Source: Thermoplasmatota archaeon
GTDB taxonomy: Archaea; Thermoplasmatota; E2; DHVEG-1; B18-G2
Direction of reading: 5' to 3'
DNA: 46,049 bases
Assembly: GCA_029259115.1 (NCBI GenBank)
Contig: JAPDJO010000050.1
Coordinates: forward strand, 1-46,049
Shown: positions 2 to 26,008 of the stretch, piece after piece
Position numbering within the stretch: the stretch's first letter is position 1
Layout: each line of letters opens with the position of its first letter
Program-made: the position numbers and the translations under genes
Notes under the pieces: generated by a model
The model's database searches: none
What the model was told of the DNA's origin: nothing
What the model saw: only the letters and a program-made list of their open reading frames with translations

Positions 2-562
2 CAAAGACCAGAATACATAATAGTTGGTGAGATAAGAGGAAGAGAGGCATATGTTCTCTTCCAAGCAATGGCTACGGGTCATACAACTTACTCTACGATG
101 CATGCAGACTCTCCACAATCCTTGATACATAGATTGGAGGGTAAGCCGATAAACATACCGAGAGTTATGCTCCAAGCTCTCGAGGTCATAGCTATTCAGA
201 CAATAGCCAGAGTCAAAGGTAAAAGAGTGAGAAGATGCAAACAGGTTGTAGAGATAGTCGACATTGATCCAAAAACAAAAGAAATACTGACAAATGAGGT
301 ATTCAGATGGGATCCTGTTGAGGATACATTTATCTATTCGGGAAGGAGTTACATTCTTGAGAAGATAAGGGCATCGACAGGTATGAGCAAAGAGGAGATG
401 GTTGAAGAAATAAAGAGGAGGGTAAAGATACTGGAATGGATGAGAAAGGAAGGGATAAGATCTTACAAGGAGGTAGCCAAGATAGTTGCTGAATATGCTG
501 AGAAACCTGAAGAGGTTATGAAGAGGGTTGAGGAGGGGCTAAAGAAACATGCCTCTAAGTAG
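2..562 (+). CDS. Type IV pilus/type II secretion assembly ATPase (VirB11/FlaI/PilB-like), 5'-truncated by the window edge
   Basis: Frame is open from base 2 and reads QRPEYIIVGEIRGREAYVLFQAMATGHTTYSTMHAD (Walker B IIVGE plus His box). Followed by two TadC-like genes. Confidence 0.93.
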   Translation, partial: QRPEYIIVGEIRGREAYVLFQAMATGHTTYSTMHADSPQSLIHRLEGKPINIPRVMLQALEVIAIQTIARVKGKRVRRCKQVVEIVDIDPKTKEILTNEVFRWDPVEDTFIYSGRSYILEKIRASTGMSKEEMVEEIKRRVKILEWMRKEGIRSYKEVAKIVAEYAEKPEEVMKRVEEGLKKHASK

Positions 563-1456: not shown

Positions 1457-2392
1457 ATGCCAAGATTCAAAAAATCGGGAAGAGAAAAAAATAAAGATAT
1501 TGCGTCAATCTCGCCAGTTTTGACCTTAGAAACTCTACTCTTCAGTAAAAGGTTTGCAAATGTGGTAACTGGTATATCCGTAACATCATCAACTGTACTC
1601 ATCATACTCGCTTTATTAAGTATACTAGGTGTTGTTCAATTACCATTGTCCGTAAACGACCTGATAGTTTTGGCCATTCTGAGCGGAACATCCATCTATG
1701 GTTTCTATCAGTATTTCCGTTCGAGATATATATGGAAGATAGACGATATATTTCCGGACTTTGTCAGAGATCTTGCTGAATCAAGGAGAGCTGGTATGAC
1801 CTTTACTAAGGCTATACTTATGGCAGCAAAGAGTAACTATGGTTTACTTACTCCTCATATTAAGAAAATGGCTAGGCAGATATCTTGGGGGGCGAGTGTG
1901 CATGAAGCGATGGATGAATTTGCAAAACATATAGGAACCCCTTTGGTCAAAAGAATCATATCTCTAATAAATGAGGCTACTAGGAGTGGTGGATCAGTTA
2001 CAGATGTTCTTATGGCTGCTGCCAATGATGCCAGGGAGTATCAGTTCCTTAGAAAAGAAAGGAGAGCAAGCATATCATCCTATGTTATAGTTGTGTACGT
2101 ATCATCTTTAGTGTTCCTTCTAATAACACTGATAATTATTAAACAATTCTTGCCTATGTTTAGTGGAGAGGCAATGACAGGTTTGAGCAGTGTAGTCACG
2201 GGTACATCCGCAACGCCGCAAATGCAAGAGATCAAGCTACTCTATTTCTATGCAGTGATCATACAAAGCATCGGATCAGGTATCGTTGCAGGAGTATTCG
2301 AGGATGGGCATTTTGAATCTGGTGTAAAACATGCTTTTATACTTTCAATAATTACCTGGCTATCATATAAATTATTTGTTCCTGGAATATAA
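1457..2392 (+). CDS. Second TadB/TadC (T2SS-F family) platform membrane protein
   Basis: FPDFVRDLAESRRAGMT, YGLLTPHIKKMARQISWG, SGGSVTDVL and C-terminal SGVKHAFIL; multiple TM helices. Confidence 0.9.
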   Translation: MPRFKKSGREKNKDIASISPVLTLETLLFSKRFANVVTGISVTSSTVLIILALLSILGVVQLPLSVNDLIVLAILSGTSIYGFYQYFRSRYIWKIDDIFPDFVRDLAESRRAGMTFTKAILMAAKSNYGLLTPHIKKMARQISWGASVHEAMDEFAKHIGTPLVKRIISLINEATRSGGSVTDVLMAAANDAREYQFLRKERRASISSYVIVVYVSSLVFLLITLIIIKQFLPMFSGEAMTGLSSVVTGTSATPQMQEIKLLYFYAVIIQSIGSGIVAGVFEDGHFESGVKHAFILSIITWLSYKLFVPGI

Positions 2393-2445: not shown

Positions 2446-5400
2446 ATGAAAAAAAAGACGATTGGTAGGTTGTATAAAGCGGTATCTCCAGTAATAGGGA
2501 CCATACTTGTGGTTGCTATAATCATATCTTCTATAACCGCTGTGATGATATGGGGCATACCTTACTTAGAAAGAACCAAGGCAGAGGCTCAACAGAGAGA
2601 TGTGTATCATCAGTTAGATCTTGCAAATGAGGCTATAAGAGATCTAATAAGCAGTGGTAAAGGTTCATCGAGAGAAATTAGATTATCCATGGAATCTGGG
2701 ACAATATCATTCGAAAACGAGCAACCAAGCCATGTCCTCATGTATGCAACGAGTAGCGACTACAATTTCTCTGTCGGTGGGTTAGATGATCTTGATAACA
2801 ACTTCATATTGAATATGGAAAAGGGAAGCGCAGATAAGGCAAATATATATAGATTTAATCCAGAAACATCTCTGCCCCCATATTATAGCACATCAAGCGA
2901 GCCAACAGCCTCCTACTATGGTAGTTTCTTGAGAAGAGTTCCTTTCAATCTCACCGATTCAAATAATACTGCTTACAAGATAACGAGCGGTAGTAGTACA
3001 CCACCTTCTCCTACGTCATTCACTTCAGAATACACATCGACAGAATATCAAAATGCTGGATATGATGATGACGAGAGCAATGCTTGGCATGGAGCAACTG
3101 GTACAGATGGCAAGTTTACAAATCTGATGTATAAATTCAAGATAGGAGATTATAATGCTAGTAATTTAGAAAAGATGGAGCTGAGATGGAAAGGCATAGA
3201 TACGCTCTCGGATGGAGGGTATCAGGGATTTTACATATGGAACCGATCCTCCAGTTCTTGGGAGCAGATAGGAGGAAATGGAGTCGCTTTGAGATTCGAT
3301 GGATTAAATGATAGAATCAATGTTCCGTGCAAGGAATATCTCAAGTATAAAGGAGGAAATTTAACCATTTGTGCATGGGTGTATGTTGAGGATGGAGAAA
3401 CTAATGGAAAAATAGTTTCTAAACCATGGAATGGACAAGGTCAGTACAATTATTATCTCTACCTCACTGGTGGAAAATTGGCACTATTTGTTGGTAACGG
3501 TACAGTATCCAAATATATAGTAGATCCTGATCCTGTATCTACAAAAGAATGGCATTACGTGACTGGAGTTTTGCACAGCGATGGGCTTATGGAGCTGTAT
3601 GTGGACGGAGAACTCAAAGCATCTGATAGCTATTCCATAACTAACTGGAATCCATCAAAAGGGGATCACAACATTAATCTGTGCATAGGTTCGCTTTACC
3701 CATACGGTTCTGGATGGGCTGGCAATGAGGGCTTTTCCTTTAGAGGTTTACTGCGTGACGTGTGCATATACAATGATTCTCTTGAGCAGAGCGAAATACT
3801 CCAGAATATGGAAGGGAACATGGTTACAGATGACTTACTAGGTTGGTGGAAACTTGATGATGCCCAAGGAACAGTTGCTCATGACGTAGCTAGACGCAAC
3901 GATGGTACACTTATGGATGGATGCAAATGGATAACAAACAGGGGAACATTTGCTTTGGAATTCGATGGAGTGGATGATTATGTGGGAGTGCCTGATTTAA
4001 ACCTTCATAATTCAAATAGTTTAACTATCGAAGCATGGGTGAAAGGCAACTCCTGGGCAGGTCAACCAGCTATAGTATTTTTTGGTGATGGTATATCGGC
4101 AGGTCAGTGGTCTATCGTTTTGTCGGTTTATAATAATAAATTTAGATTTGGTTTAGAATCCGGTACAACGGATTACAACACATGGGGTAATACAGTGTTA
4201 GATACAGGCGTTTGGTATCACTTGGTAGCAGTCAAAAATGGAACAGTAGTGAGAACATATATAAATGGAGTGCAAGATGACAGCGGAACTGCCCCTTCAA
4301 CAACTAATGATGTTACTAATCATCGAATTGGAGCAATGTATACCACGAACCCAGATTATTACTTCAACGGCACCATCGACGAAGTCCGTATTTACAACAG
4401 AGCATTAACCGCTGATGAAATTTATCAGAATTATCTTGGGAATGTTACAACTGCAGGCTTAGTTTCATGGTGGAAATTTGATGAAGGGTATGGAAATGTC
4501 CTGCACGATTCTGTTGGTGAAAATCATGGTAGGATACATGGTGCACAGTGGATTGACTACAAGAATTTCGCATTAAAATTCGATGGTGAAAGAGACTATG
4601 TATTGATTCCGGATTCAGATAGCCTTGATATTTCAGACAATATTACTGTGGAGACCCGCGTATGGTATGCTGGAGGGAGTAGCAAAACTGTATGGGCAAA
4701 GGATACAGATCATGACATAGGTTGCAACCTTTACGATCCTGCAAGCGACAATTACGCTCCCGGTGACGTAGTTAGATATGCAGTGCCAGAAAATGGAACA
4801 GGGAACTTAATGATCTACGAATTCACTGGAAGTATGGATTCTCACTATGGGAGAACCGGCATATATCTTCGACTAAAGATCGGAGAAAAACCACCGGTTT
4901 CAGAAGATATAGTCAAATTGGAAGTCTGGGATTTAACGGAAAATTGCAAAGTCTTGGAAGATTTATACAAGACTTCGGATTTTGGCACTAAAGATATAAC
5001 AAAATATTGGTATGGTTACCAGATAGGACATCATCCTAGATTTTTCGCATATAGTGGACATTCTTACAGAGTGGTTGTGTACTATTATGCGAATGTCCCC
5101 GTCTATATAGAAAGATTAACATTTGATCGGTATCATAGACCACCAGTAGAGAAGGGATCAGCGTGGAGATTGTATACGACTGGTGGAACGTTCCAGTTTT
5201 TAGTTTGGCATCCAGATGGCACCTATTCATATGCAAATTATTATGGTTTGACATCATACTGGAGAGGGTGGGTGGACTTAACCGCAAGTTACAGTTCTGT
5301 AGACGGGTTCAAATTATATGTCAATGGTAACGAAGTTACACCATCCTATGTTAGATTCTTGGGTAAGAGTATAAGAACCACATCCAGTCCAGTATACATA

Positions 5401-8400
5401 GGATCCGGTTATCATAAATTTCCGGGAATGGTAGATTATGTTAGGATATATAATAGAGTTCTAACAAGTAGTGAAGTAAAACAAAACTATCTTGAGAAAG
5501 TTACGACCGACGGGCTCGTCTCTTGGTGGGATTTCAACGAGGGTTACGGAAATGTAGTGCATGATAAAATCGGTGACAATGATGGAACCATATACGGTGC
5601 AGATTGGGTCTACACAGATGGAGGCTCCTTAGAATTTGATGGTGTAGACGACTACGTATCTGGAAAGGGAACAGCAACTTTTGATGATTTCACTATAATA
5701 GCTACGGTCAAGCAAGAAGGATGGCATGGACACCATGAACCTATCTTTGCGTGGGCTAACTCAACAGATGGTTTGTATCTGATATTGAGCAAAGATAAGT
5801 ATCTGAGAGTCGGCGTAGAAGTTAATGACAATTTCCACCATGAAGGACTGTACTACATAGGGGATAACTACATTGGGAAAGAAAAGATGTATGCGGCTAG
5901 ATGGGATGGTGATACTGGTTCAGTAAAGGTTTACATAGATGGTAATTCAGTTGGCGAATCCACATCATATCCAACTGGGTCGATAGACCTAAGCAAAGGT
6001 GTTAACTTCTGTATAGGGAAGAGCACAACTGGCTACTGGGGCGAAACTAGTGCAAGATTTTGGGGAAAGATATCGGAGATTTTGGTTTACAATAGAGCAC
6101 TCAGTGATAGTGAGATACAAGATATATACTCGGGCAGTATAGTAACGAGCGGTTTAGTAGCATGGTGGAGATTTGACGAGGCTAAAGGCATAACTTTAAA
6201 TGATTTTGCTGGTAACAATATAGGAAAACTCGTTAATGGCCCGGTTTGGAGAGGAGATATACCTCCCACAAACGAGAACCTCTATGTCGAAACAATTTTA
6301 GGCAATCTTTCAAACTACGTAGATGACTCTAACTATGTAAAAATATGTGTGGTTGGTGGTAAAGGAGAAAGTTTCACTTCTCCTTCATCCTGTACATCTT
6401 GGTACTATGACAGAAACAAAGCATATTGTACATGGATAGATGCCTATAATGAGGATGAGTACTATGTGCAATACAGTACAGATGGGGGAGCCACTTGGAC
6501 TAACGATCCCAATTCACCTTACTTCCCTGGAACAACGCAATCTGAACCAATATATTTCGGTCCAGAAAAACAGATAAAATTCAGAGTAAAATCTGTTAAA
6601 GATGGCATATCTTCAGGATGGTCAACCTCTGGTTACATATATACAGCTCCAGGAAAACCAGAGAATGTTCAGGCTGTCTCTGTGTCATCGGATTCGATAA
6701 ATGTAACATGGACAGACAACTCGAGTTATGAGTCTGGATATGTTATTTATAGATCTACAAATGGTGGAAATTATGAATTTTTAACATCTGTGCCAGCTAA
6801 TACAGAATATTACCTAGACACAAGTGTAACTGCTGGTAATACCTACACATATAGAGTCTACGCGTACAAGAGCATAAGTAATCCCAAGATAAATATATAT
6901 AGTGATCCTGGAAATAGTTCTCTCGTATCCCCAACAGAATGGTGGGATACAAACTGGCAGTACTATAAAGTCTGCAATATCGATACAAACGGGTATTCAG
7001 GATACTATCAGATGAGAATAAAAGTCGGTTACAGTTCGGGGGGAGACGTATCATGTGAAGGTCATTGCCAACCAGATTTTGACGACATCCGTTTTGTCGA
7101 TACCGACAACTCGACAGTGTTGCCACATTGGAAAGAGACTTATGTGGATTCTCAATTTGCCATATTTTGGGTTAATGTTTCAGCAGATGCAATGAGTGAT
7201 GGAAAAATACTCATGTATTATGGTAACCCATCTGCTACTGATGCAAGCGATGGAGATTCAACTTTCATATTTTTTGATGATTTTACAACAGATACAACAG
7301 GCAATTATAACATAGTTGCAGGAGATGATAATAAAGCCCACTTGGTAGGCAATAATTTCTTCAGTGTGCAAGATGGAGTTCGAATGATATGGAAGACTAA
7401 AATTACAAATTTTGATGCTAATCAATGGGGCTCTTATATAGGTTTTTATTATGGAGATGTGTTAAATTCTCCACGTTACATGAATAACAGATGGTGGAGT
7501 ATTATTAGTAGCGACACAGATGCTGGAGCAAGCGATAGTCCATTAACATTAGTTTTGCAGGCAGGTTCAGAAAAAGCAGGGACTGTTACAAAAGTAAAAC
7601 AGGTAATGCAATTTAGCTTGAATAGAGCATATTATTTTGAGCATTGTATGTCTCAAACAAAAATAAAAACAAGAGCCAGAGATGCTAATTTTTTGGAGAT
7701 TACATCTGCAGAGCTAACAACAGGAATAGCTGATATTTCCACACTAAACTATGCAATGATTATGCTATGGCATTGTAATGAAGATGGCACAGAGTGGGAT
7801 TGGTCATGGAATTCCGTAGAACAAGCAGTAAGAATGTACGTAAAGAGAGATGGTTGGAGTATAATAGATACACTTAGTGATTGGTTTGGTATTGCTAAAT
7901 GGGTTGATACAGAACCACGATGGAGCGGTTTCAGTAGTGAACAAACTCAACCAACAGTTCTATGCCTTTCAGGTGACACTCGAGTAGAGATGATTAGTGG
8001 TGAGTACAAGGAGATACAAGATATAGGAAAAGGAGACATACTTCTATCCTACGATCCTGAAAGAGGAGAGTATACATCATGCAAGGTCGTATCTGTAGGT
8101 ACATCTACCCAGCAAGTTTATAGTATAAATGATGGACTGTTGTACATCACGGATACCCATCCATTGTATGCAAGAAAAAGTGATGGGTATGAAGGCTGGG
8201 TTACGATAAATCCAGAAAAGATGAAAGAACATTATGGTATTAGTGAGGTTAGAAAGCTAGAGATCGGAGACAAACTTTATTGCAGATACGATGGATGGGA
8301 TGTAGAGGTAACGTCGATAGTACCTCAAGATGTGAGAGAGGTTTACAATTTAGAGTTAACATACCCATACACATTCTTTGCCAACGGAACACTTACTAGA

Positions 8401-9354
8401 GCTATGCCTTCTACTCACATGAGAAGCTCCTCTCACACGATGTATGAAAACTATGTCGAGTTGTCTATATATTTCATACAGAATGATTCTACTCCACCTT
8501 CTACAACCATAACTTCTACGGATCCAGTACTCGTTGATGGGAAAACAACCTCATCTACAATAACTTTCTACTGGTATAGTACTGACAATCTATGTCCGTC
8601 TGACGATCTTGTCTATTGCTGGATGCTTGTTGGCAGAGATTTGGATTGGAGCAATTGGACTTCTCAAACTTATGTAACATACACAGATCTGGTTCCTGGA
8701 GACTATGTATTCAAGGTAAGAGCCAAAGATCTTGCAGGTAATGTTGAAAGACCATCATCACTCAACACATTATCATTTACCGTATTGGAGGCTAGCGAAA
8801 CCATTTCGATATCTGCATCACCAGGAGTACCAACTACAGTGACTACTAGTGAACCCCTCAAAGGTTTTGTCCTCATTGACTTATACAACGGCAGTGTCAA
8901 CCTAGGTAAGATATGGCTCTTGACACCAGGAGAAGTAGAGTATAGAATACCGACGAGTGAGGGAACTTATGGAGTCTCTCTACTCGATGGAGGGATATCT
9001 ATGATATATCCTGATGGTAGCGCTATTGTAGGAGAGCCCATAATCTCCATGGGGAATTCCATGATCCATTTACATTTCATACATATGTTTGGTAGTACAT
9101 TCTCTTTCTCAGGTAGAGGTACGTGCAAATTCAAGTTTACGCTTTCTCAAAGCAAGATACTCCAGTATCGCGTACCTGTTTATAATCTGAGATTCCAGTT
9201 CTTTGGCGAAACTTCAGAGGGATGGACCAACTATTTCAAGATATATCATTCATTCAAAAAGATGGGAGAAAATGAGGTGGCTAAATTCAATCAACCTGTA
9301 AACTTGGTATTGGGATACTCATCGATAAAGGTTGAGGAGAGTGGGTTTGGATGA
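2446..9354 (+). CDS. Giant pilin-like adhesin (2302 aa): class III signal peptide, 4 LamG domains, 2 FN3, DUF2341, Hint domain, Y_Y_Y/Ig domain, pilin-scaffold C-terminus
   Basis: N-terminus KKKTIGRLYKA|VSPVIGTILVVAII; repeated ALxFDGxxDY...IDEVRIYNRALT...GLVSWWKFDEG LamG units; FN3 (PENVQAVSVSSDSINVTWTDNSSYESGYVIYRS); DUF2341 (DFDDIRF...FWVNV...MYYGN...FIFFDDF); CLSGDT Hint start. GGAGGGG SD upstream. Confidence 0.88.
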   Translation: MKKKTIGRLYKAVSPVIGTILVVAIIISSITAVMIWGIPYLERTKAEAQQRDVYHQLDLANEAIRDLISSGKGSSREIRLSMESGTISFENEQPSHVLMYATSSDYNFSVGGLDDLDNNFILNMEKGSADKANIYRFNPETSLPPYYSTSSEPTASYYGSFLRRVPFNLTDSNNTAYKITSGSSTPPSPTSFTSEYTSTEYQNAGYDDDESNAWHGATGTDGKFTNLMYKFKIGDYNASNLEKMELRWKGIDTLSDGGYQGFYIWNRSSSSWEQIGGNGVALRFDGLNDRINVPCKEYLKYKGGNLTICAWVYVEDGETNGKIVSKPWNGQGQYNYYLYLTGGKLALFVGNGTVSKYIVDPDPVSTKEWHYVTGVLHSDGLMELYVDGELKASDSYSITNWNPSKGDHNINLCIGSLYPYGSGWAGNEGFSFRGLLRDVCIYNDSLEQSEILQNMEGNMVTDDLLGWWKLDDAQGTVAHDVARRNDGTLMDGCKWITNRGTFALEFDGVDDYVGVPDLNLHNSNSLTIEAWVKGNSWAGQPAIVFFGDGISAGQWSIVLSVYNNKFRFGLESGTTDYNTWGNTVLDTGVWYHLVAVKNGTVVRTYINGVQDDSGTAPSTTNDVTNHRIGAMYTTNPDYYFNGTIDEVRIYNRALTADEIYQNYLGNVTTAGLVSWWKFDEGYGNVLHDSVGENHGRIHGAQWIDYKNFALKFDGERDYVLIPDSDSLDISDNITVETRVWYAGGSSKTVWAKDTDHDIGCNLYDPASDNYAPGDVVRYAVPENGTGNLMIYEFTGSMDSHYGRTGIYLRLKIGEKPPVSEDIVKLEVWDLTENCKVLEDLYKTSDFGTKDITKYWYGYQIGHHPRFFAYSGHSYRVVVYYYANVPVYIERLTFDRYHRPPVEKGSAWRLYTTGGTFQFLVWHPDGTYSYANYYGLTSYWRGWVDLTASYSSVDGFKLYVNGNEVTPSYVRFLGKSIRTTSSPVYIGSGYHKFPGMVDYVRIYNRVLTSSEVKQNYLEKVTTDGLVSWWDFNEGYGNVVHDKIGDNDGTIYGADWVYTDGGSLEFDGVDDYVSGKGTATFDDFTIIATVKQEGWHGHHEPIFAWANSTDGLYLILSKDKYLRVGVEVNDNFHHEGLYYIGDNYIGKEKMYAARWDGDTGSVKVYIDGNSVGESTSYPTGSIDLSKGVNFCIGKSTTGYWGETSARFWGKISEILVYNRALSDSEIQDIYSGSIVTSGLVAWWRFDEAKGITLNDFAGNNIGKLVNGPVWRGDIPPTNENLYVETILGNLSNYVDDSNYVKICVVGGKGESFTSPSSCTSWYYDRNKAYCTWIDAYNEDEYYVQYSTDGGATWTNDPNSPYFPGTTQSEPIYFGPEKQIKFRVKSVKDGISSGWSTSGYIYTAPGKPENVQAVSVSSDSINVTWTDNSSYESGYVIYRSTNGGNYEFLTSVPANTEYYLDTSVTAGNTYTYRVYAYKSISNPKINIYSDPGNSSLVSPTEWWDTNWQYYKVCNIDTNGYSGYYQMRIKVGYSSGGDVSCEGHCQPDFDDIRFVDTDNSTVLPHWKETYVDSQFAIFWVNVSADAMSDGKILMYYGNPSATDASDGDSTFIFFDDFTTDTTGNYNIVAGDDNKAHLVGNNFFSVQDGVRMIWKTKITNFDANQWGSYIGFYYGDVLNSPRYMNNRWWSIISSDTDAGASDSPLTLVLQAGSEKAGTVTKVKQVMQFSLNRAYYFEHCMSQTKIKTRARDANFLEITSAELTTGIADISTLNYAMIMLWHCNEDGTEWDWSWNSVEQAVRMYVKRDGWSIIDTLSDWFGIAKWVDTEPRWSGFSSEQTQPTVLCLSGDTRVEMISGEYKEIQDIGKGDILLSYDPERGEYTSCKVVSVGTSTQQVYSINDGLLYITDTHPLYARKSDGYEGWVTINPEKMKEHYGISEVRKLEIGDKLYCRYDGWDVEVTSIVPQDVREVYNLELTYPYTFFANGTLTRAMPSTHMRSSSHTMYENYVELSIYFIQNDSTPPSTTITSTDPVLVDGKTTSSTITFYWYSTDNLCPSDDLVYCWMLVGRDLDWSNWTSQTYVTYTDLVPGDYVFKVRAKDLAGNVERPSSLNTLSFTVLEASETISISASPGVPTTVTTSEPLKGFVLIDLYNGSVNLGKIWLLTPGEVEYRIPTSEGTYGVSLLDGGISMIYPDGSAIVGEPIISMGNSMIHLHFIHMFGSTFSFSGRGTCKFKFTLSQSKILQYRVPVYNLRFQFFGETSEGWTNYFKIYHSFKKMGENEVAKFNQPVNLVLGYSSIKVEESGFG
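7963..8403 (+). other. Hint domain within the giant pilin; N-terminal catalytic residues intact, C-terminal His-Asn replaced by Arg-Ala
   Basis: Block A CLSGDTRVEMISGEYKEIQDI, block B ITDTHP, blocks F/G VYNLELTYPYTFFANGTLTRA|M where VHN|C/S/T is canonical; 147 aa, no endonuclease. Confidence 0.87.
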
Positions 9355-12836: not shown

Positions 12837-12861
12837 TGTGTATATGGAATATGGTGAGAAT

Positions 12862-15800
12862 ATGAGAAGGTTGTATGGAGATAGGAGGGGGGTTGCTTCA
12901 CCTTTAGAGTTCACAACAGCCTTTGCTGTATTCTTTGTAGCATTCGCTTTAATGGCGGTGTATGTTGGTAATGTCCTTGCACCTTTTGAAACAAACAACG
13001 CAAATTATGAAGCCGTAGCTATAGAGATAGCAGAGAAATTGGTGAACAATCCAGGGAGAACATTAAAGGGAAATGTTGAGTGGGAACTAGAGCCTGACCA
13101 GCTAGCATATCTTGGTTTAGCGATGCCAAAGCCAGTATACGATGTGTATTTCTATGGAAACGGAACCATAGAGGTGGTGGTTGACAAGGTAAATGAATAC
13201 TTTGATCTAGCAGTTGAAGACCTCTCATACTCCCCAAGAACACCAACAGTGATAGAAGGCTCGAAGATATACGTATCTTTCAAGGTAAAGAATCTTATGA
13301 GTGGTAATGCATCTGCGTTTAACTACACGGTCCAGATAGACAATTATGTTCAGTATCAGGGAAGATACAACAAGAGTCTAGCACCTGGAGAGGTTGCAAG
13401 CTTTGACAACATAGAGGCAACCGTTCCTTCCGATGGAAAGAGCTATTATGTCCTGATGGTTTCAATCTTCCCAGATGTTCAGGATGCGGATATATCAAAT
13501 AACGCAGCATCCCTAACACTAATTGTTGAAAGCGGAGGAGATACTGACACAGACATAGATACGGATATAGATGGAGATAGCGACTGGTTGGTGATAGAAA
13601 TAGATGGTCCAACGAGCATCTATGTTCCTATAAATCCGAGAACAGGTTCACAGACCGGTAGTATAGGTGGAAGCACATCATCTGGAGGAATAAAATACGC
13701 GAATGTGACCGCTACTTATACGGTTGAGAGATTAGAGAGGAACAGTGGAGCGTCTGTTGCGTTACCTGTTTACTTCTGGTGGACAGGTGGTCCCTCTGGA
13801 CCAGCGGAGGGGTTAGAACTCCGATCATATAAGGTTACCTTCACCAAGGACGATGAAGGAAATCACATGATATCCTGCAGTGCAAGAGATGCTGAGGGCG
13901 TGACAGGTGATGCTCGCTCACTACTAGTTCATGTCGAGGTTGAGAAGATAACTGTTGTGATAAACGGTCCTACCAATGTAGAGGCTGGCAGAATATATAC
14001 GTATACGATAACAGCATATCATAATGGTGAGGAATTCTGGTTAGCTGGCAGATCTCGAGCTTATGATGTGCATTGGTCAACAAATGGACTAGTTAGCGAG
14101 GGATTCAATGGAGCTTGGTACAAATGGAATGAACCAGGCAACTACACTGTGGCTGTGTGGGGTAAGATAGACTATAAAGGAGAGATACTTGGATATCCTT
14201 TCTACGCATCGATATCTGTAAGAGTAAATGGCTCAGATTCATCTGACACATGTTTCCTAGCAGGAACAAAGATACTGATGGCTGATGGAACAACTAAGAA
14301 CATAGAAGACGTTAAAGTAGGAGATCTTGTGAAGTCTTATGATACTGAAACTGGAGAAATTAAGGTGAGTAAGGTTACAGAGGTGTTCCATCACAGCCCA
14401 GATGAGATGGGAGATTACTATCTAGTGATAAACAACGAACTCAAAGTAACTCCGAATCATCCGTTCTATGTCAATGGAAAATGGATTCCAGCAGAAGAGA
14501 TAAAGGTTGGAGATGTGCTGGGAACAATGAAGGTTAAATCCATAGAGAAGGTTTACAAGAAGGTTCCAACATACAACATAGAGGTTGAGCCGTATCACAG
14601 TTACATTCTTGCATTCTCAAATCTAGTGGTTCACAATGGTGCAGCTTCTGGATCACAGACAGGTAGTGGCTCGGTAACACCTCTTTACAGTCTGTCTGTA
14701 GGTGTAACTCCTTCATCTGCTGGATATGTTGATATAACTCCAGCAAAGAATGGTTACTCAAGTGGAGAGACAGTTACTCTGGAGGCAAAGGCATATTCTG
14801 GATACACCTTTGATCACTGGTCTGGAGATGCGAGCGGAGATAATCCAAAGATAACTATAACGATGAACTCAAACAAACAGGTTACCGCTGTTTTCAGGTC
14901 AACTAGTGGAGCTGGAGCTGTACAGGGAACTCAACAATCAGCAAATGCTGTTCTTGTCCCATTGAACGGAGACATATCTGGAGGATCTGGAGGACCAAGT
15001 TTGGATCTCGGTGGGACTGCAGAATCTCTAGGAAATGTGTTAGTAATTACTGGAAACAAGGGAAGCACAAGCAATCCCTTCTACAGTACACCTGTAGGCA
15101 CCCAGCAGGTAAATGTAAATCCATTCAACGGTGGAGAGAACACATGCTTCCTAGCAGGGACAAAGATACTGATGGCTGATGGATCTCTAAAGAACATAGA
15201 AGATGTCAAAGTTGGAGATCTTGTGAAGTCTTATGATACTGAGACTGGAGAGATAAAGACAGGAAAGGTCACGAAGGTATTCCACTTCGGTGCTGACAAG
15301 ATGGGATACTACTACCTGAAAATAAATGGCAATCTAATGTTAACTCCAAACCACATGCTCTATGTCAATGGAAGATGGACTCCTGCTGGAGAGGTAAAGG
15401 TTGGAGATACACTCGGATTTGGAACAAAGGTTTACAGCATAGAGAAGGTATACTATGATTTCAGACCCGTTTATGATCTTGAGGTCGAGCCTTACCACAA
15501 CTACATGGTTCTCACCTCATCCGGTACAGTACTTGCCCACAATGCTACAGCATCCGCGATACTGATAGAGGGAGCCAGTGCTGATAGTGGAGACTCTCAG
15601 CTTGTAGACTCTTCAAGTACAGCAGGAATCGAGGAAGAGGCAAATACAGACGATGATGTAGGTGATAGTGATGATAGCGATATAGATGAGCCTCAGGAGG
15701 AGACAGATACGGAAGAGGAACTTGATGAAGATGTTCAGATCCTGCCGAAAGGTGACTCCACAACTTACGTCTACAACGGAACATCTGTAGATCCATCTGC

Positions 15801-16236
15801 AAAGATTTCAATAATGATATCAAGAATGTACGAGATGGTCCCGAAACCATCTGGAGGAAGTAATGACTGTAGATACAGGAGAATTGAGTATTCTGGGACA
15901 ACAACATCAGGAATACCTTTCCTTAGGGTACTGATGACATCAACTAAGGAAGTGAGCTACGCTACGATAATGCCTGAGAAGATAGAGGCTCTAAGATACA
16001 TACCTTATGAGAAGGCAAAGGATGCGTTACTCGGAGATGCTGGTATAAACGATGTTGACTTCATGATAAGAATAACGAGACTCGATGGATCAGAGATACT
16101 CAGCTATGGTGCTCAATACAAGGATTCATCAACAGCGATTGCAAGTTACAGTAGACAGATAGTGATATATCCAAACGAGATCCTAGAATACGACGGCTTT
16201 ATACCAGCAATACTAACGGTAACGGTATTCAAGTAA
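12862..16236 (+). CDS. Large pilin-like protein (~1124 aa): class III signal, CARDB, Ig/PKD-like domains, two Hint domains flanking an InlB B-repeat, acidic linker, pilin-scaffold C-terminus
   Basis: MRRLYGDRRG|VASPLEFTTAFAVFFVAF; GGTGA SD before ATG 12862; CARDB (DLAVEDLSYSP...DADISNNAAS); two CFLAGTKILMADG...HN units; YTFDHWSGDASG B-repeat. Confidence 0.87.
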   Translation: MRRLYGDRRGVASPLEFTTAFAVFFVAFALMAVYVGNVLAPFETNNANYEAVAIEIAEKLVNNPGRTLKGNVEWELEPDQLAYLGLAMPKPVYDVYFYGNGTIEVVVDKVNEYFDLAVEDLSYSPRTPTVIEGSKIYVSFKVKNLMSGNASAFNYTVQIDNYVQYQGRYNKSLAPGEVASFDNIEATVPSDGKSYYVLMVSIFPDVQDADISNNAASLTLIVESGGDTDTDIDTDIDGDSDWLVIEIDGPTSIYVPINPRTGSQTGSIGGSTSSGGIKYANVTATYTVERLERNSGASVALPVYFWWTGGPSGPAEGLELRSYKVTFTKDDEGNHMISCSARDAEGVTGDARSLLVHVEVEKITVVINGPTNVEAGRIYTYTITAYHNGEEFWLAGRSRAYDVHWSTNGLVSEGFNGAWYKWNEPGNYTVAVWGKIDYKGEILGYPFYASISVRVNGSDSSDTCFLAGTKILMADGTTKNIEDVKVGDLVKSYDTETGEIKVSKVTEVFHHSPDEMGDYYLVINNELKVTPNHPFYVNGKWIPAEEIKVGDVLGTMKVKSIEKVYKKVPTYNIEVEPYHSYILAFSNLVVHNGAASGSQTGSGSVTPLYSLSVGVTPSSAGYVDITPAKNGYSSGETVTLEAKAYSGYTFDHWSGDASGDNPKITITMNSNKQVTAVFRSTSGAGAVQGTQQSANAVLVPLNGDISGGSGGPSLDLGGTAESLGNVLVITGNKGSTSNPFYSTPVGTQQVNVNPFNGGENTCFLAGTKILMADGSLKNIEDVKVGDLVKSYDTETGEIKTGKVTKVFHFGADKMGYYYLKINGNLMLTPNHMLYVNGRWTPAGEVKVGDTLGFGTKVYSIEKVYYDFRPVYDLEVEPYHNYMVLTSSGTVLAHNATASAILIEGASADSGDSQLVDSSSTAGIEEEANTDDDVGDSDDSDIDEPQEETDTEEELDEDVQILPKGDSTTYVYNGTSVDPSAKISIMISRMYEMVPKPSGGSNDCRYRRIEYSGTTTSGIPFLRVLMTSTKEVSYATIMPEKIEALRYIPYEKAKDALLGDAGINDVDFMIRITRLDGSEILSYGAQYKDSSTAIASYSRQIVIYPNEILEYDGFIPAILTVTVFK
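13540..13584 (+). repeat. Asp-X dipeptide repeat linker (DTDTDIDTDIDGDSD)
   Basis: Degenerate 6-bp periodicity (gat act gac aca gac ata gat acg gat ata ...). Confidence 0.7.
14251..14637 (+). other. Hint (BIL-A/PT-HINT-like) domain 1; ends His-Asn, +1 residue Gly
   Basis: CFLAGTKILMADG...VTPNHP...TYNIEVEPYHSY...VVHN|GAASG; 129 aa. Confidence 0.92.
15145..15543 (+). other. Hint (BIL-A/PT-HINT-like) domain 2; ends His-Asn, +1 residue Ala
   Basis: CFLAGTKILMADG...LTPNHM...VYDLEVEPYHNY...LAHN|ATASA; 133 aa; first 38 aa are 36/38 identical to Hint 1. Confidence 0.92.
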
Positions 16237-18094: not shown

Positions 18095-20683
18095 TTATAC
18101 CTTGGTGAGAATAACCTCTCCTTCTACACCATCATACATCTGTGGATGCTGACTCTTTCCACGGGATGCTGCATATGCTGTCGTGAGAGGAGCAGCATAA
18201 GCAAAAGCCTCTTCAGCAGACACCATCCCGTCTTTCTCATAGCCGTTCACCCCATCTGCTGCCCCCTTCATTCCCTGCGCGAGATAATATCCAAAAACAC
18301 CGCTTCTCAGGGCATCAAATGCCCACGACGATTCATCATCCATAGAAGATGCCAAGATCAATCTACCCTCACCTTGTATATATGACATGAATCCACCAGA
18401 CTCACAGAATTCTAGTATGAGAACTGTCTTGTTTGTGTAAAGTTTATCAAGGAAATATTCCTCAAAGAGGGTGTAAGGTATACCACCGCACTTTTCGTAT
18501 GTAGCAAACCCTGTATCTCCTCCATGTCCTGCAAAGTAGAAAAGAACAACATCATCCGCATCTTCCTTATCCGCTGTTTCGTTTAGGGCTTGATATACCT
18601 CACTTGATGTTGCATCTAATAAAAGTGTTACACTCCATCCACTCTCTACCAGCAGAGATGCTATGTTTTCTGCATCATTTCTTGCCCATTTTGCTGGTTT
18701 ACTAACCTCGTAATTTTCACATCCAACAACTACAGCCCAGCGCTCTGTAACTCCATCTGGCTCATTTCCTTCATACTCGCCATACTCTCTGAAACAGAGA
18801 TCAACATCCAGCTCTTTCCATTCTCCATTTTCATATGCATAGGCTGAACCTCTTTTATACGGATTGTTACTTCCATAGAATATCTTGTAGTAGTTTCTCT
18901 CATTTCCTGGTTTAACTATCATTTTAGCTACAATATAATACTCTTTGTGCAATTTCATATTATAGTTGCTCAGATCAAAATAGAACCATCCCTCTCTTGG
19001 CAGATCTCTTGGATCCATAGTCACATACGCTATATCTTCTCCATCTAATGATTCTCTAAATGAGATTTTTAAATATCCCATTATCCACCAGCCTGTTGGT
19101 TCTGCTGGTTGTATATTACCATTCGATGTTTTCTTGTTTACAGTTATCTTATTCAGCTTCATCCTTATAAATGATAGAATTTTAGCAAGCAATCCCTTGT
19201 CTTTGCCTCTGCCTGCTAATATGGAAGAGAGAGATGATGCAACACCGCCGTTATCAGTACTATCAAAACCGGTCTTTTTCCCTATAAGTAGCTCTATGCC
19301 TACAAATTTTATGTACTTCTTTGGTTTGAAGGACTGAGCATACATCTTGTCTCCATACAGTTTAAAGTATCCATCTCGCTTTTCTTGTCTCTGGTCGATC
19401 CCTCCTCCTGCTGGCACTTTCGGTTTATCTCTAGGCTTTATCTCTATTGATTTGTATGCTATTCCCTTGCTTCCATTGTTATCAGTTATCACGAGTTTTA
19501 TTGTGTATCTTCCTTCCTGCTTGTATGTGTAGAGAGCCTTTTCACCATAGACAACATCTCCATTTCCGAGATACCATGTGTAGTTTACTATAATTCCATC
19601 TGGGTCATAGCTTTGAGATGCATTCAAAACAATAACTTCATTTACATAGCCAATGGAAGGAACTTCTGCTACTGCGATAGGCTCAGAGTTCCTCAGTGCC
19701 CTCGTTATCTTTATTTCGTAATTCCCTTCTCCTTCACCACCGCTCTCAAAATCAATCACTCTGACACGTATCACATACCTTCCTTCCTTTCTATAGATGT
19801 GGTTTATCTCTATAACCTTTCTTTCTGTGAATATGATCTGAGGTATGCTTCCATCTCCCCAGTCTATGTAGTAGCGATATCTGAAAGTGCTGATATTGTT
19901 CTCTACATCTACGGACAAAGTTGTGAATTCTACCTTGCCTGTTGATACCTCAACAACGAAGGGAATACTTACGCCCGTAGAATAGCTATCTGCAGGTTTT
20001 GATGGATATACAGAGACACAAAGCTCTGGAGTTTCGAGCACATCTATCCTTTTGCTTAAACCTCTATAACCGTATTTTTTCACTTCTATGACATACCTTC
20101 CGTGATCTTCTGGGGTTAGTTTTACTACACCATTACTTGATGTGTACCCATAGTCTACAGCTAGAAGGTGACCTACCTTCCTCAGAGTAACTTTTGCACC
20201 CTTAACAGGTCGAGAGGTATCTCTTTCGAGAACCCTCACGTAGAACTCCTTGTATTCATAAACAGAATTACCGTCGTTTATCTCTATCTTCAATTCCTTC
20301 TCAGGAGAATAGACCAACACCTTGACAGTCCTCTCCTTCGTTACACCATCACATGTGACCTTAGCCTTCGCCTCAAAGTATCCTACCTTCTTGTAAGTGT
20401 GATACAGCTTTACATAATCATAATCTGTATAGCCTATTATCTTGGGGCTGCCATCTCCAAAATCTATCTCGTATCTATATTTTCCAGTATGAACAGCTGT
20501 AGTAGAAACGAGTTCTTCAATCTCTAATTCAAAGCTTACCTTTGTACCTTTCTCGATCTTGATGAAAGTCTTTCCGTTAACCGTGAAGCTTTTTATATCA
20601 AAAGAGCCAGATGTTGCCAATGAGTTTACACCTGAGAAAATGAACATGCCAACCACAGCTAAAGCGAAGATAATCTTCCTCAT
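18095..20683 (-). CDS. Secreted caspase-family (peptidase C14-like, clan CD) protein with PKD domains
   Basis: Signal peptide; PKD motifs (IDFGDG, IDWGDG, SYDPDG..YTWYLGNG); C-terminal RWAVVVG..Y, NDA, FYFAGHG (His), LEFCESGGF (Cys), DGMVSAEEAFAY, QHPQMYD. Confidence 0.85.
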   Translation of the reverse strand: MRKIIFALAVVGMFIFSGVNSLATSGSFDIKSFTVNGKTFIKIEKGTKVSFELEIEELVSTTAVHTGKYRYEIDFGDGSPKIIGYTDYDYVKLYHTYKKVGYFEAKAKVTCDGVTKERTVKVLVYSPEKELKIEINDGNSVYEYKEFYVRVLERDTSRPVKGAKVTLRKVGHLLAVDYGYTSSNGVVKLTPEDHGRYVIEVKKYGYRGLSKRIDVLETPELCVSVYPSKPADSYSTGVSIPFVVEVSTGKVEFTTLSVDVENNISTFRYRYYIDWGDGSIPQIIFTERKVIEINHIYRKEGRYVIRVRVIDFESGGEGEGNYEIKITRALRNSEPIAVAEVPSIGYVNEVIVLNASQSYDPDGIIVNYTWYLGNGDVVYGEKALYTYKQEGRYTIKLVITDNNGSKGIAYKSIEIKPRDKPKVPAGGGIDQRQEKRDGYFKLYGDKMYAQSFKPKKYIKFVGIELLIGKKTGFDSTDNGGVASSLSSILAGRGKDKGLLAKILSFIRMKLNKITVNKKTSNGNIQPAEPTGWWIMGYLKISFRESLDGEDIAYVTMDPRDLPREGWFYFDLSNYNMKLHKEYYIVAKMIVKPGNERNYYKIFYGSNNPYKRGSAYAYENGEWKELDVDLCFREYGEYEGNEPDGVTERWAVVVGCENYEVSKPAKWARNDAENIASLLVESGWSVTLLLDATSSEVYQALNETADKEDADDVVLFYFAGHGGDTGFATYEKCGGIPYTLFEEYFLDKLYTNKTVLILEFCESGGFMSYIQGEGRLILASSMDDESSWAFDALRSGVFGYYLAQGMKGAADGVNGYEKDGMVSAEEAFAYAAPLTTAYAASRGKSQHPQMYDGVEGEVILTKV

Positions 20684-25186: not shown

Positions 25187-26008
25187 ATGGGAGACGAAGA
25201 AAAAAAGTTAAGAGTGGCTATCTATACTAGAGTTTCTACTGAGGATCAGGCTAAAGAAGGTTTTTCTCTCAAAGCTCAACTTGATAAGCTGAGATCCTAC
25301 TGTAAGGCGAGGGGCTGGGAAATAGCTGGAGAGTATACTGATGATGGCTACTCTGGAAGAACTACGAGAAGACCCGCGTACCAAAAGATGATGCGAGAGA
25401 TGGATAAATGGGATGCAATTCTTGTAATTAAGATGGACAGGATACATAGAAACTCAAAGAACTTCATGATGATGATGGAGCAGCTGAGAGCACGTGGGAA
25501 AGAATTCGTATCAATGACAGAATCTCTCGATACTTCTACAGCCATGGGTAGATTCGTTATGGATATAATTCAGAGAATAGCTCAGCTTGAGAGCGAGCAG
25601 ATTGGAGAAAGAGTTTATGTTGGTATGGAACAAAAAGCCAAGATGGGGAAGGGGATGCTAGGGTTTAATATCCCTTATGGTTATGATTATGTTAACGGTA
25701 AACTTATAATCAATAAAGAAGAGGCCGAGATTGTCAAAAAGATATTTCAGTGGTATCTAGATGGAAAAAGTATTGGCTGGATCGTAAAAACCCTTCAGAA
25801 ACGGAAAATTTCGACGAAAAAAGGGGGGGTATGGGCTAAAAAAACGGTTTCTAGCATACTAAAAAATCCTATCTACTGTGGATATCTCAAATGGGAAAAA
25901 TATCTCAACAAAGGCGATCATGAGCCGATAATAGATGTTGATACCTTTAACAAGGTTCAAAATTTGATCAAAAAGAGAGGAGGTAAACCTTCAGTTTTGA
26001 TAAAGTGA
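25187..26008 (+). CDS. Serine recombinase (resolvase catalytic domain plus recombinase DNA-binding domain; no zinc ribbon or coiled coil)
   Basis: AIYTRVSTEDQ (catalytic Ser), DDGYSG..RP, KMDRIHRN, AQLESEQIGER, PYGYD, ILKNPIYCG, HEPIID..TF.KVQ; ends at 273 aa. Confidence 0.93.
   Translation: MGDEEKKLRVAIYTRVSTEDQAKEGFSLKAQLDKLRSYCKARGWEIAGEYTDDGYSGRTTRRPAYQKMMREMDKWDAILVIKMDRIHRNSKNFMMMMEQLRARGKEFVSMTESLDTSTAMGRFVMDIIQRIAQLESEQIGERVYVGMEQKAKMGKGMLGFNIPYGYDYVNGKLIINKEEAEIVKKIFQWYLDGKSIGWIVKTLQKRKISTKKGGVWAKKTVSSILKNPIYCGYLKWEKYLNKGDHEPIIDVDTFNKVQNLIKKRGGKPSVLIK

Follow-up and report, generated by a model that had tools for sequence, protein, structure and literature searches.

A 46,049-nucleotide (nt) contig of a Thermoplasmatota archaeon (JAPDJO010000050.1 of assembly GCA_029259115.1; this whole stretch is referred to here as the window, and the genome it belongs to is 98.7% complete, with 94 contigs and 1.40 Mb) encodes a giant pilin-like protein, P0001, that carries a Hint (Hedgehog/intein) domain towards its C-terminus. 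On sequence and modelling evidence, this domain is probably an active, BIL-like Hint of a one-ended kind, acting at the Leu1839-Cys1840 junction of P0001 with cleavage of the chain as the default. The original prediction, made from the letters of the window alone, had recognized the one-ended state of the domain and proposed that a thioester at this junction serves as a covalent "harpoon". The domain order of P0001 is a class-III-type signal/helix, the N part of DUF7289, four Laminin_G_3 domains, fn3, DUF2341, the Hint, Y_Y_Y and the C-terminal half of a pilin-like head, and the features around the Hint are as follows.

2446..9354, forward strand: giant pilin-like protein gene (P0001), 2302 amino acids (aa), the largest open reading frame of the window
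7063..7947, forward strand: DUF2341 plus beta-sandwich module, residues 1540-1834, the last N-extein domain
7960..7965, forward strand: predicted scissile/thioester junction Leu1839-Cys1840 (Cys1 is kept in 241/244 family Hints)
7963..8403, forward strand: Hint domain, residues 1840-1986 (147 residues)
8149..8160, forward strand: block B, T1902-D-T-H1905 (codons ACG GAT ACC CAT)
8398..8403, forward strand: Arg1985-Ala1986 (AGA GCT) at the site of the intein His-Asn, with Met1987 (ATG) at +1
8434..8463, forward strand: conserved motif HTMYENYVEL after the Hint, residues 1997-2006
8602..8784, forward strand: Y_Y_Y (Ig-like) domain, residues 2053-2113 (Pfam)

The catalytic residues named in the original prediction proved exact at the codon level: Cys1, encoded by TGC at 7963-7965, and the TDTH of block B are retained, and the site of a C-terminal VHN is occupied by TRA followed by Met. 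At its C-terminus the domain reads FFANGTLT-Arg-Ala, then Met1987; a check of the codons found no frameshift able to hide a His-Asn pair at the Hint end, and several substitutions would be needed to turn Arg-Ala into His-Asn. The statement that the Hint directly follows DUF2341 held for the module as a whole, which stops five residues before Cys1840 (module bounds taken from G006:C78, with 35% identity over 1540-1834), but not for the Pfam DUF2341 match itself, which spans residues 1544-1617 only.

Residues 1840-1986 belong to the Hint superfamily, with the fold, Cys1 and T-x-x-H all present. A phmmer search against 1.84 billion representatives with the Hint as query gave 1263 cluster representatives at E≤1e-3, of which 256 reached E≤1e-10, and a family profile built from the first-round matches scored this Hint at 172 bits (E 5e-53), within the range of ~110-200 bits that covers most of the single full-length family Hints listed. 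In an AlphaFold2 model of residues 1800-2302, the predicted local distance difference test (pLDDT) values were 80-92 across the Hint, and Foldseek matched the model to Hint structures at probability 1.0, with 86 Protein Data Bank (PDB) matches at E≤1e-3. The best of these was 6y75_A, the BIL2 domain of Tetrahymena BUBL1 (E 9.1e-10, template modelling (TM) score 0.82 on target), other matches being mini-inteins, the Clostridium thermocellum BIL 2lwy (E 2.7e-6) and Hedgehog 1at0 (E 7.6e-6). Among the Foldseek matches listed, all were inteins, BILs, Hedgehog or Vint except 4a2m_D and 2yn3_A, whose alignments fall on the Ig-like part of the model. BIL2 was also the best sequence match among solved chains, albeit a weak one (E 0.026).

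The strongest argument for retained function comes from orthologues in which the domain holds the same architectural position. Eleven sequences share the P0001 C-terminal module, consisting of the HTxYExY motif, Y_Y_Y and the terminal domain. In seven of them the last Hint lies no more than 25 aa from this module, and the Asn is missing in all seven of these abutting Hints, which end in RA (window), RG (P0006), AG (P0008), YG (P0011, P0051 and L005) and KS (P0077, which is N-truncated). The abutting orthologues share 29-43% identity with P0001 over the Hint plus C-terminal module, although one pair among them, at 75% mutual identity, is not independent. The block B Thr and His and the Pro that follows are invariant in all eleven aligned orthologues, and Cys1 is present in every abutting Hint sequence that covers the position. 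The motif behind the Hint is conserved as well, with T1998, E2001 and Y2003 invariant in 11/11; its pLDDT falls below 50 in the AlphaFold2 model, which may mean that its partner is absent from the modelled construct. The original prediction had called for an alignment of orthologues and had named an intact His-Asn in close orthologues as the sign of a merely degenerate copy; the alignment instead showed loss of His-Asn or Asn with retention of Cys and T-x-x-H to be recurrent, and no intact His-Asn was present in any of the seven abutting Hints.

The phylogeny of these Hints was examined in a site-heterogeneous IQ-TREE tree from which the last two alignment columns had been removed. The window Hint was nearest to Hints ending in YG, RG and AG, with L005 (YG, 50%) the closest by identity in that comparison. 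When the six full-length abutting Hints were held as one clade, the log-likelihood was 38.8 above that of the free quick tree, and this grouping was not rejected by the approximately unbiased (AU) test (p 0.962). The IQ-TREE tree and AU test were preferred over a FastTree analysis, branches being weak in both. The sequence data are thus read as consistent with a single old loss of the Asn, after which the N-side residues were long retained.

The same retention was seen in a wider census of 244 near-full Hints, a set with some redundancy that combines the 150 best representatives with loci of related genomes and is grouped here by the final two residues:

Ending HN: 152 Hints, with Cys1 in 150, block B Thr in 139 (Ser in 8) and His in 151
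Ending xN (mostly SN): 33 Hints, with Cys1, block B Thr and His in all 33
Ending x[E/D/Q] (mostly YE/FE): 48 Hints, with Cys1 in 47, block B Thr in 39 (Ser in 8) and His in 48
Other endings, window copy included (RA twice, YG three times, and RG, AG, KS, HH, LT and AS): 11 Hints, with Cys1, Thr and His in all 11

The N-side catalytic set is therefore retained in every C-terminal class, and an Asn-less end with retained N-side residues occurs in 59/244 family Hints. Where a protein carries several Hints (13 proteins), the Asn-less Hint is the last of the array in eleven instances and non-last in two.

These data bear on the possibility that the domain is a catalytically dead relic, the chain staying intact and the Hint serving only as a spacer or fold. 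Such a relic would agree with the loss of the C-terminal catalytic pair, with sub-threshold Pfam scores and with an atypical block A (both given below). However, within the Asn-less clade Cys1 and the Thr, His and Pro of block B show no change although the last two residues drift, the domain reaches 172 bits against the family profile, and the same selective retention recurs across the family, so that a dead relic appears rather unlikely. On the sequence comparison, the window copy is not simply degenerate, and the drift of the two C-terminal positions among these Hints, beside an invariant Cys1, Thr and His, is the pattern to be expected of a functional one-ended Hint.

Several observations nevertheless weigh against an active one-ended Hint. 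The Pfam Hint models remain below threshold on this domain (Vint 19.6-24.8 bits versus 27; Hint, PF01079, 13.5-17 versus 29.7; PT-HINT, PF07591, 13.5 versus 27.7), and block A reads CLSGDT versus the usual CFPAGT of the family, Leu at position 2 being a minority state. Conservation of Cys, Thr and His may reflect folding or metal binding rather than catalysis. The residue at -1 is variable among orthologues (L, A, P, A, K, P). Four of the eleven same-module orthologues keep an Asn (SN in three, HN in one), behind an extra spacer of 80-95 aa, so that Asn loss is not universal in this protein family. FastTree places the window Hint beside three HN-ending Hints (support 0.81, inner fork 0.44), and the IQ-TREE tree has no strongly supported branch joining the Asn-less group.

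The spacer of the four Asn-keeping orthologues (L006, L007, P0013 and P0139) is itself conserved, reading PLDD...SFS-GFFG..PSY...DSPLY between the Hint and the C-terminal module.

The setting of the Hint became clear from comparison of P0001 with shorter homologues. P0001 can be described as a pilin-like head of ~340 residues that carries an insertion of ~1980 residues, because its N-terminal region matches the first part of DUF7289, its C-terminal region aligns with a relative that matches the later part, and the corresponding halves are contiguous in minimal homologues:

2446..2856, forward strand: N half of the head, residues 1-137, with the hydrophobic helix and beta strands, ending at the strand ANIYRF (132-137)
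2857..8787, forward strand: insertion (adhesive arm, Hint and Y_Y_Y), ~1980 aa, absent from minimal homologues of 338-345 aa
8788..9351, forward strand: C half of the head, residues 2115-2302

The DUF7289 match in P0001 itself covers profile positions 2-81 (34.4-40.2 bits versus a Pfam threshold of 27), and the C half aligns at E 2e-39 with that of P0077, in which Pfam DUF7289 positions 105-214 are matched. Homologues of the N half were found in 14/41 related genomes, and the N and C halves are contiguous in homologues of 338, 343 and 345 aa from related genomes. In intermediate homologues (512-1261 residues) the insertion falls at the same point, after a strand (I/V)YW(L/F)ND that corresponds to ANIYRF of P0001. 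The AlphaFold2 model of one minimal homologue was a single confident body (pLDDT 81.3, predicted TM score 0.79), for which Foldseek returned no solved look-alike at E≤1e-3.

The two head halves of P0001 are predicted to dock tightly. Complex prediction for residues 12-140 with 2110-2302 gave an interface score (ipSAE) of 0.91, the best of three controls reaching 0.08; by rough counts made with own alignments, a mark of 0.91 is reached by 58/80 solved complexes and by 2/110 mismatched pairs. The docking runs showed at least 96% contact agreement, partner pLDDT of at least 88 and ~400 contacts, with strand 132-135 paired with 2142-2146. The docking score is unlikely to reflect a known structure memorised by the predictor, since no solved look-alike of the head was found at that E-value cut-off. 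The expectation in the original prediction that both halves of the protein would stay on the pilus is thus plausible. Its view that the Hint lies inside a domain that closes around it was borne out in a wider sense than had been stated, the whole insertion lying within the pilin-like head, but a local domain closing around the Hint appears less likely, as in four orthologues another Hint directly precedes it, with a linker of 8-11 aa.

Hints are recurrent in this pilin family, either directly after the N half or, as in P0001, directly before the C-terminal module, and the arms between differ widely among homologues. This raises the question of whether the Hint-coding sequence acts at the DNA level, as a recombination landmark at the insertion edge for swapping arm cassettes, with protein chemistry secondary. 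The position of Hints at either edge and the variability of the arms fit such a role, as do the two Hints of the neighbouring gene P0002, with 77% DNA identity to each other over 278 nt. It would, however, leave unexplained the conservation of Cys1, Thr and His against the free drift of the last two residues, and the protein identity between Hints of different proteins reaches only 30-50%, which is insufficient for homologous recombination; we regard a DNA-level role as extremely improbable.

Mini-Hints at the N edge (YWLNDT|CF...) end in HN|E, HN|T, HN|Q, KS|D or VS|D and were found in the homologues L037:3256-4791, L041:6453-7976(-), L038:2298-4283, L038:395-2278, L036 and L043. In homologues of 512 and 526 aa, the insertion is hardly more than the Hint.

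For the Hint of P0001, the present data show the fold, the conserved residues, the architecture of the insertion and a predicted docking of the head halves; an acyl shift, cleavage and a route by which the thioester is resolved are what we infer from established Hint chemistry (PMC4031507, PMC5874633). Once the protein is exported and folded, Cys1840, aided by Thr1902 and His1905, would carry out an N-S acyl shift at Leu1839-Cys1840 to form a thioester. Since Ala ends the domain and Met occupies +1, both Asn cyclisation and trans-esterification to a +1 nucleophile would be unavailable, and resolution of the thioester would depend on an outside agent, be it water, a thiol or another nucleophile. 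The simplest outcome would be hydrolysis or thiolysis, by which the chain would be cut into a fragment A (the pilin helix, the N half of the head and the arm as far as Leu1839) and a fragment B (the Hint, Y_Y_Y and the C half of the head). The interleaved head would hold the two fragments together after the cut, and the arm would change from a closed loop into a free-ended tether. In the literature, BIL domains are described as lacking a +1 nucleophile and cleaving at their own ends, with type B BILs cleaving without splicing (PMC4031507, PMC5874633).

Other fates of the thioester would leave the arm covalently joined at its end. It is possible, though unlikely, that aminolysis or esterification, in place of attack by water, links the ~1700-residue arm through its free end to a lysine on a neighbouring pilus subunit, to the cell envelope or to a target surface. 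In one form of such ligation, the attacking group is an amine or hydroxyl of the organism itself, for example in a lysine of an adjacent pilin subunit, another pilin-like protein of the operon, the S-layer or a membrane lipid, and the arm becomes cross-linked or anchored. BIL2, the closest solved relative by structure and sequence, provides an example of this chemistry, its N-extein being moved via a thioester to a lysine of another protein to give an isopeptide (Lys-epsilon-amide) bond (PMC8616854). The operon contains three pilin-like genes, two of them with Hints, and 45 of the 150 listed family representatives have a Hedgehog-like layout of an Asn-less Hint with an amphipathic tail of ~33 aa, hinting at transfer chemistry. 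However, neither an acceptor residue nor a partner was identified, proteins of the tail-bearing class differ from P0001 in architecture, and self-directed ligation is indistinguishable from plain hydrolysis on present data; we consider it decidedly unlikely.

The harpoon of the original prediction differs in its target, the Leu1839 thioester being captured by a foreign nucleophile, whether of a surface, a lipid, a glycan or a partner cell, so that the far end of the arm is fixed while its near end stays on the pilus. Its appeal lies in the lectin-like LamG, fn3 and DUF2341 domains of the arm and in the conservation of the one-ended state, together with the transfer of an N-fragment to cholesterol by Hedgehog (PMC5874633) and to lysines of other proteins by BIL2 (PMC8616854). 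The sequence after the Hint, however, comprises only the conserved motif, the Ig-like domain and the head half, and no adduct- or acceptor-recognition region of the Hedgehog type was found there; nor was an acceptor identified. A backbone N-S thioester is short-lived by established chemistry, with hydrolysis expected, especially at high temperature. The bond to the target would also form at the end far from the anchor of the lectin domains, with no evident timing of the reaction to contact. Attachment of the arm to any of these four kinds of target therefore found no support, cleavage being the default fate of a Hint thioester, and the harpoon appears very improbable.

The parallel that had been drawn with the thioester adhesins of Gram-positive pili stands as a functional analogy only, a reactive thioester on a pilus-borne adhesin. 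In the Gram-positive proteins the bond is a side-chain Cys-Gln thioester that is pre-formed and buried, in a fold unrelated to Hint, whereas the thioester of P0001 would be transient and in the backbone. No Gram-positive thioester (Cys-Gln) domain was found among the Pfam hits at E≤0.01 over the whole of P0001.

Among the known classes of Hint domains, the mode of action proposed for the P0001 Hint comes closest to that of BIL type B or of Hedgehog. As in BIL domains, the Hint fold occurs in a variable surface protein and without a +1 nucleophile (PMC4031507 and PMC5874633, and Amitai et al. 2003 and Dassa et al. 2004 as summarised there); unlike them, its host is an archaeal pilin-like protein and it occupies one conserved architectural position inside a split head. 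BIL type A, defined by a C-terminal His-Asn without a +1 nucleophile (PMC4031507), was rejected for the P0001 Hint: the +1 nucleophile is missing as in type A, but so is the His-Asn. The absence of a usable C-terminal His-Asn is shared with BIL type B; this type is described as lacking similarity to block G, whereas the P0001 Hint keeps a block-G-like FFANG-x-L strand and has lost only the last two residues.

With BIL2 (BUBL1; PDB 6y75 and 6tmm), the closest solved structure at 24% identity, the P0001 Hint has in common a ...NFFANG-x-L... end and an inserted W-x-x-(I/V)-x-P segment; unlike the P0001 Hint, BIL2 has a C-terminal Asn (the crystallised mutant is N143A), and it is eukaryotic, intracellular and flanked by ubiquitin-like domains. 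The Hedgehog Hog domain (1at0) resembles the P0001 Hint in having Cys1 and T-x-x-H with no terminal Asn, an outside nucleophile resolving the thioester and the N-fragment being the functional product (PMC5874633), but it differs in having a sterol-recognition region behind the Hint and a Gly-Cys junction (PMC5874633). In P0001 the junction is Leu-Cys. Assignment of the P0001 domain as a Hog domain was rejected because the conserved motif, the Ig-like domain and the head half stand behind the Hint in place of an adduct-recognition region, and because the PF01079 score is sub-threshold.

Pretoxin HINT domains (PF07591) of polymorphic toxins act as a releasing peptidase in large secreted filament-like proteins, a likeness to P0001, but unlike the P0001 Hint they sit just before a C-terminal toxin domain (PMC3482391). 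This assignment was rejected as well: PT-HINT is sub-threshold, no toxin domain was found downstream by Pfam, and the C-terminal part is half of the head. Pfam Hint_2 gave no match to the P0001 Hint at E≤10. A canonical (class 1) intein was rejected because the C-terminal Asn is missing (Arg1985-Ala1986), +1 is Met1987 and there is no endonuclease, and also because the host is a variable surface pilin-like protein with the Hint at the edge of the variable insertion. A remnant of a selfish intein was rejected on the conservation of the Hint at a fixed architectural position, and on the absence of the Asn, the +1 nucleophile and the endonuclease.

One-ended Hints as such are already known. In a literature search no link of Hint or intein-like domains with archaeal pilins was found, although subscription journals and supplements may hold more, and Makarova et al. 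2016 (PMC4858521) contains no occurrence of "Hint" or "intein". Hint domains beyond inteins and Hedgehog are poorly studied, and the present data describe an archaeal pilin-like family that carries Hints at the edges of a giant head insertion, with one clade in which the N-side chemistry alone has survived long divergence. Whether a pilus-borne adhesive arm is cut or covalently transferred after export thereby becomes testable. If the arm were covalently joined, archaea would possess a covalent pilus or adhesin chemistry that is driven by a Hint and independent of ATP. Its outcome would resemble that of Gram-positive pili, whether sortase-built or thioester-armed, and its mechanism that of Tetrahymena BIL2 and Hedgehog. 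Transfer in place of hydrolysis would also mean a new archaeal route of covalent surface attachment and a natural thermostable one-ended ligation module.

The Hint family itself is large and apparently undescribed, with many members in tandem arrays. An evenly drawn sample of the phylum had the Hint in 9/201 genomes at E≤1e-5, and six of the nine came from one family of the window's own order. The arrays contain up to eight Hints with linkers of only 2-6 residues (P0004, Thermoplasmatales-labelled and 1628 aa long; P0007, P0010, P0018 and others); their Hints nearly all end in HN, and +1 is Lys in 85 of the 152 HN Hints. The Hedgehog-like layout found in 45 of the 150 best representatives consists of a C-terminal Hint, usually single, ending in [Y/F]E without Asn, and then an amphipathic tail with a median of 33 aa and the pattern EHPP...FPxL...L, as in P0035, P0058, P0068, P0087, P0089, L012 (G034:C20) and L013 (G023:C60). 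In archaea, such a Hint with nothing but a short tail behind it could be a mark of transfer chemistry at the C-terminus. The N-termini inspected in P0035, P0058, P0068 and P0089 resemble Sec signals.

The genes around P0001 place it in a pilus locus. The neighbours are as follows.

2..562, forward strand: 3' end of a T2SSE/PilB3-like ATPase gene, upstream of P0001
549..1454 and 1457..2392, forward strand: two T2SSF/PilC-like genes, directly upstream of P0001
9351..11867, forward strand: second pilin-like gene, P0003 (DUF7266, DUF2341, Laminin_G_3), without a Hint
12838..16236, forward strand: third pilin-like gene, P0002 (DUF7287, CARDB, two mini-Hints)

By its gene content, with T2SSE and T2SSF genes upstream of P0001 and two further pilin-like genes downstream, the locus is an archaeal type IV pilus-type operon. 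P0001 begins with a short charged leader and then a hydrophobic helix like that of archaeal type IV pilins; the Pilin_N and TIGR02537 models remain sub-threshold (20.9-23.7 bits versus 25.2, and 16.2 versus 20, respectively), and the signal and helix, the DUF7289 profile and the pilus assembly genes nearby identify it as an archaeal type IV pilin-like protein of the DUF7289 type. The named relatives of P0001 come only from metagenome bins labelled Thermoplasmatales or Thermococci, and every one is annotated as "hypothetical protein".

The start of P0003 (9351) and the stop of P0001 (9352-9354) overlap by 4 nt, which suggests coupled translation of the two genes. In P0002, the mini-Hints (14251-14637 and 15145-15543; 129 and 133 aa) flank a Flg_new_2 repeat, and both start with (D/N)T|CFLAGT. 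With ends of HN|G and HN|A these two Hints are, by their sequences, of the BIL type A kind, and they pass the PT-HINT threshold at 84.3 bits. Beyond the pilus locus, a surface-type protein with PKD and caspase (Peptidase_C14) domains is encoded on the opposite strand (18095-20683), and a serine recombinase (Resolvase plus Recombinase) lies downstream on the forward strand (25187-26008).

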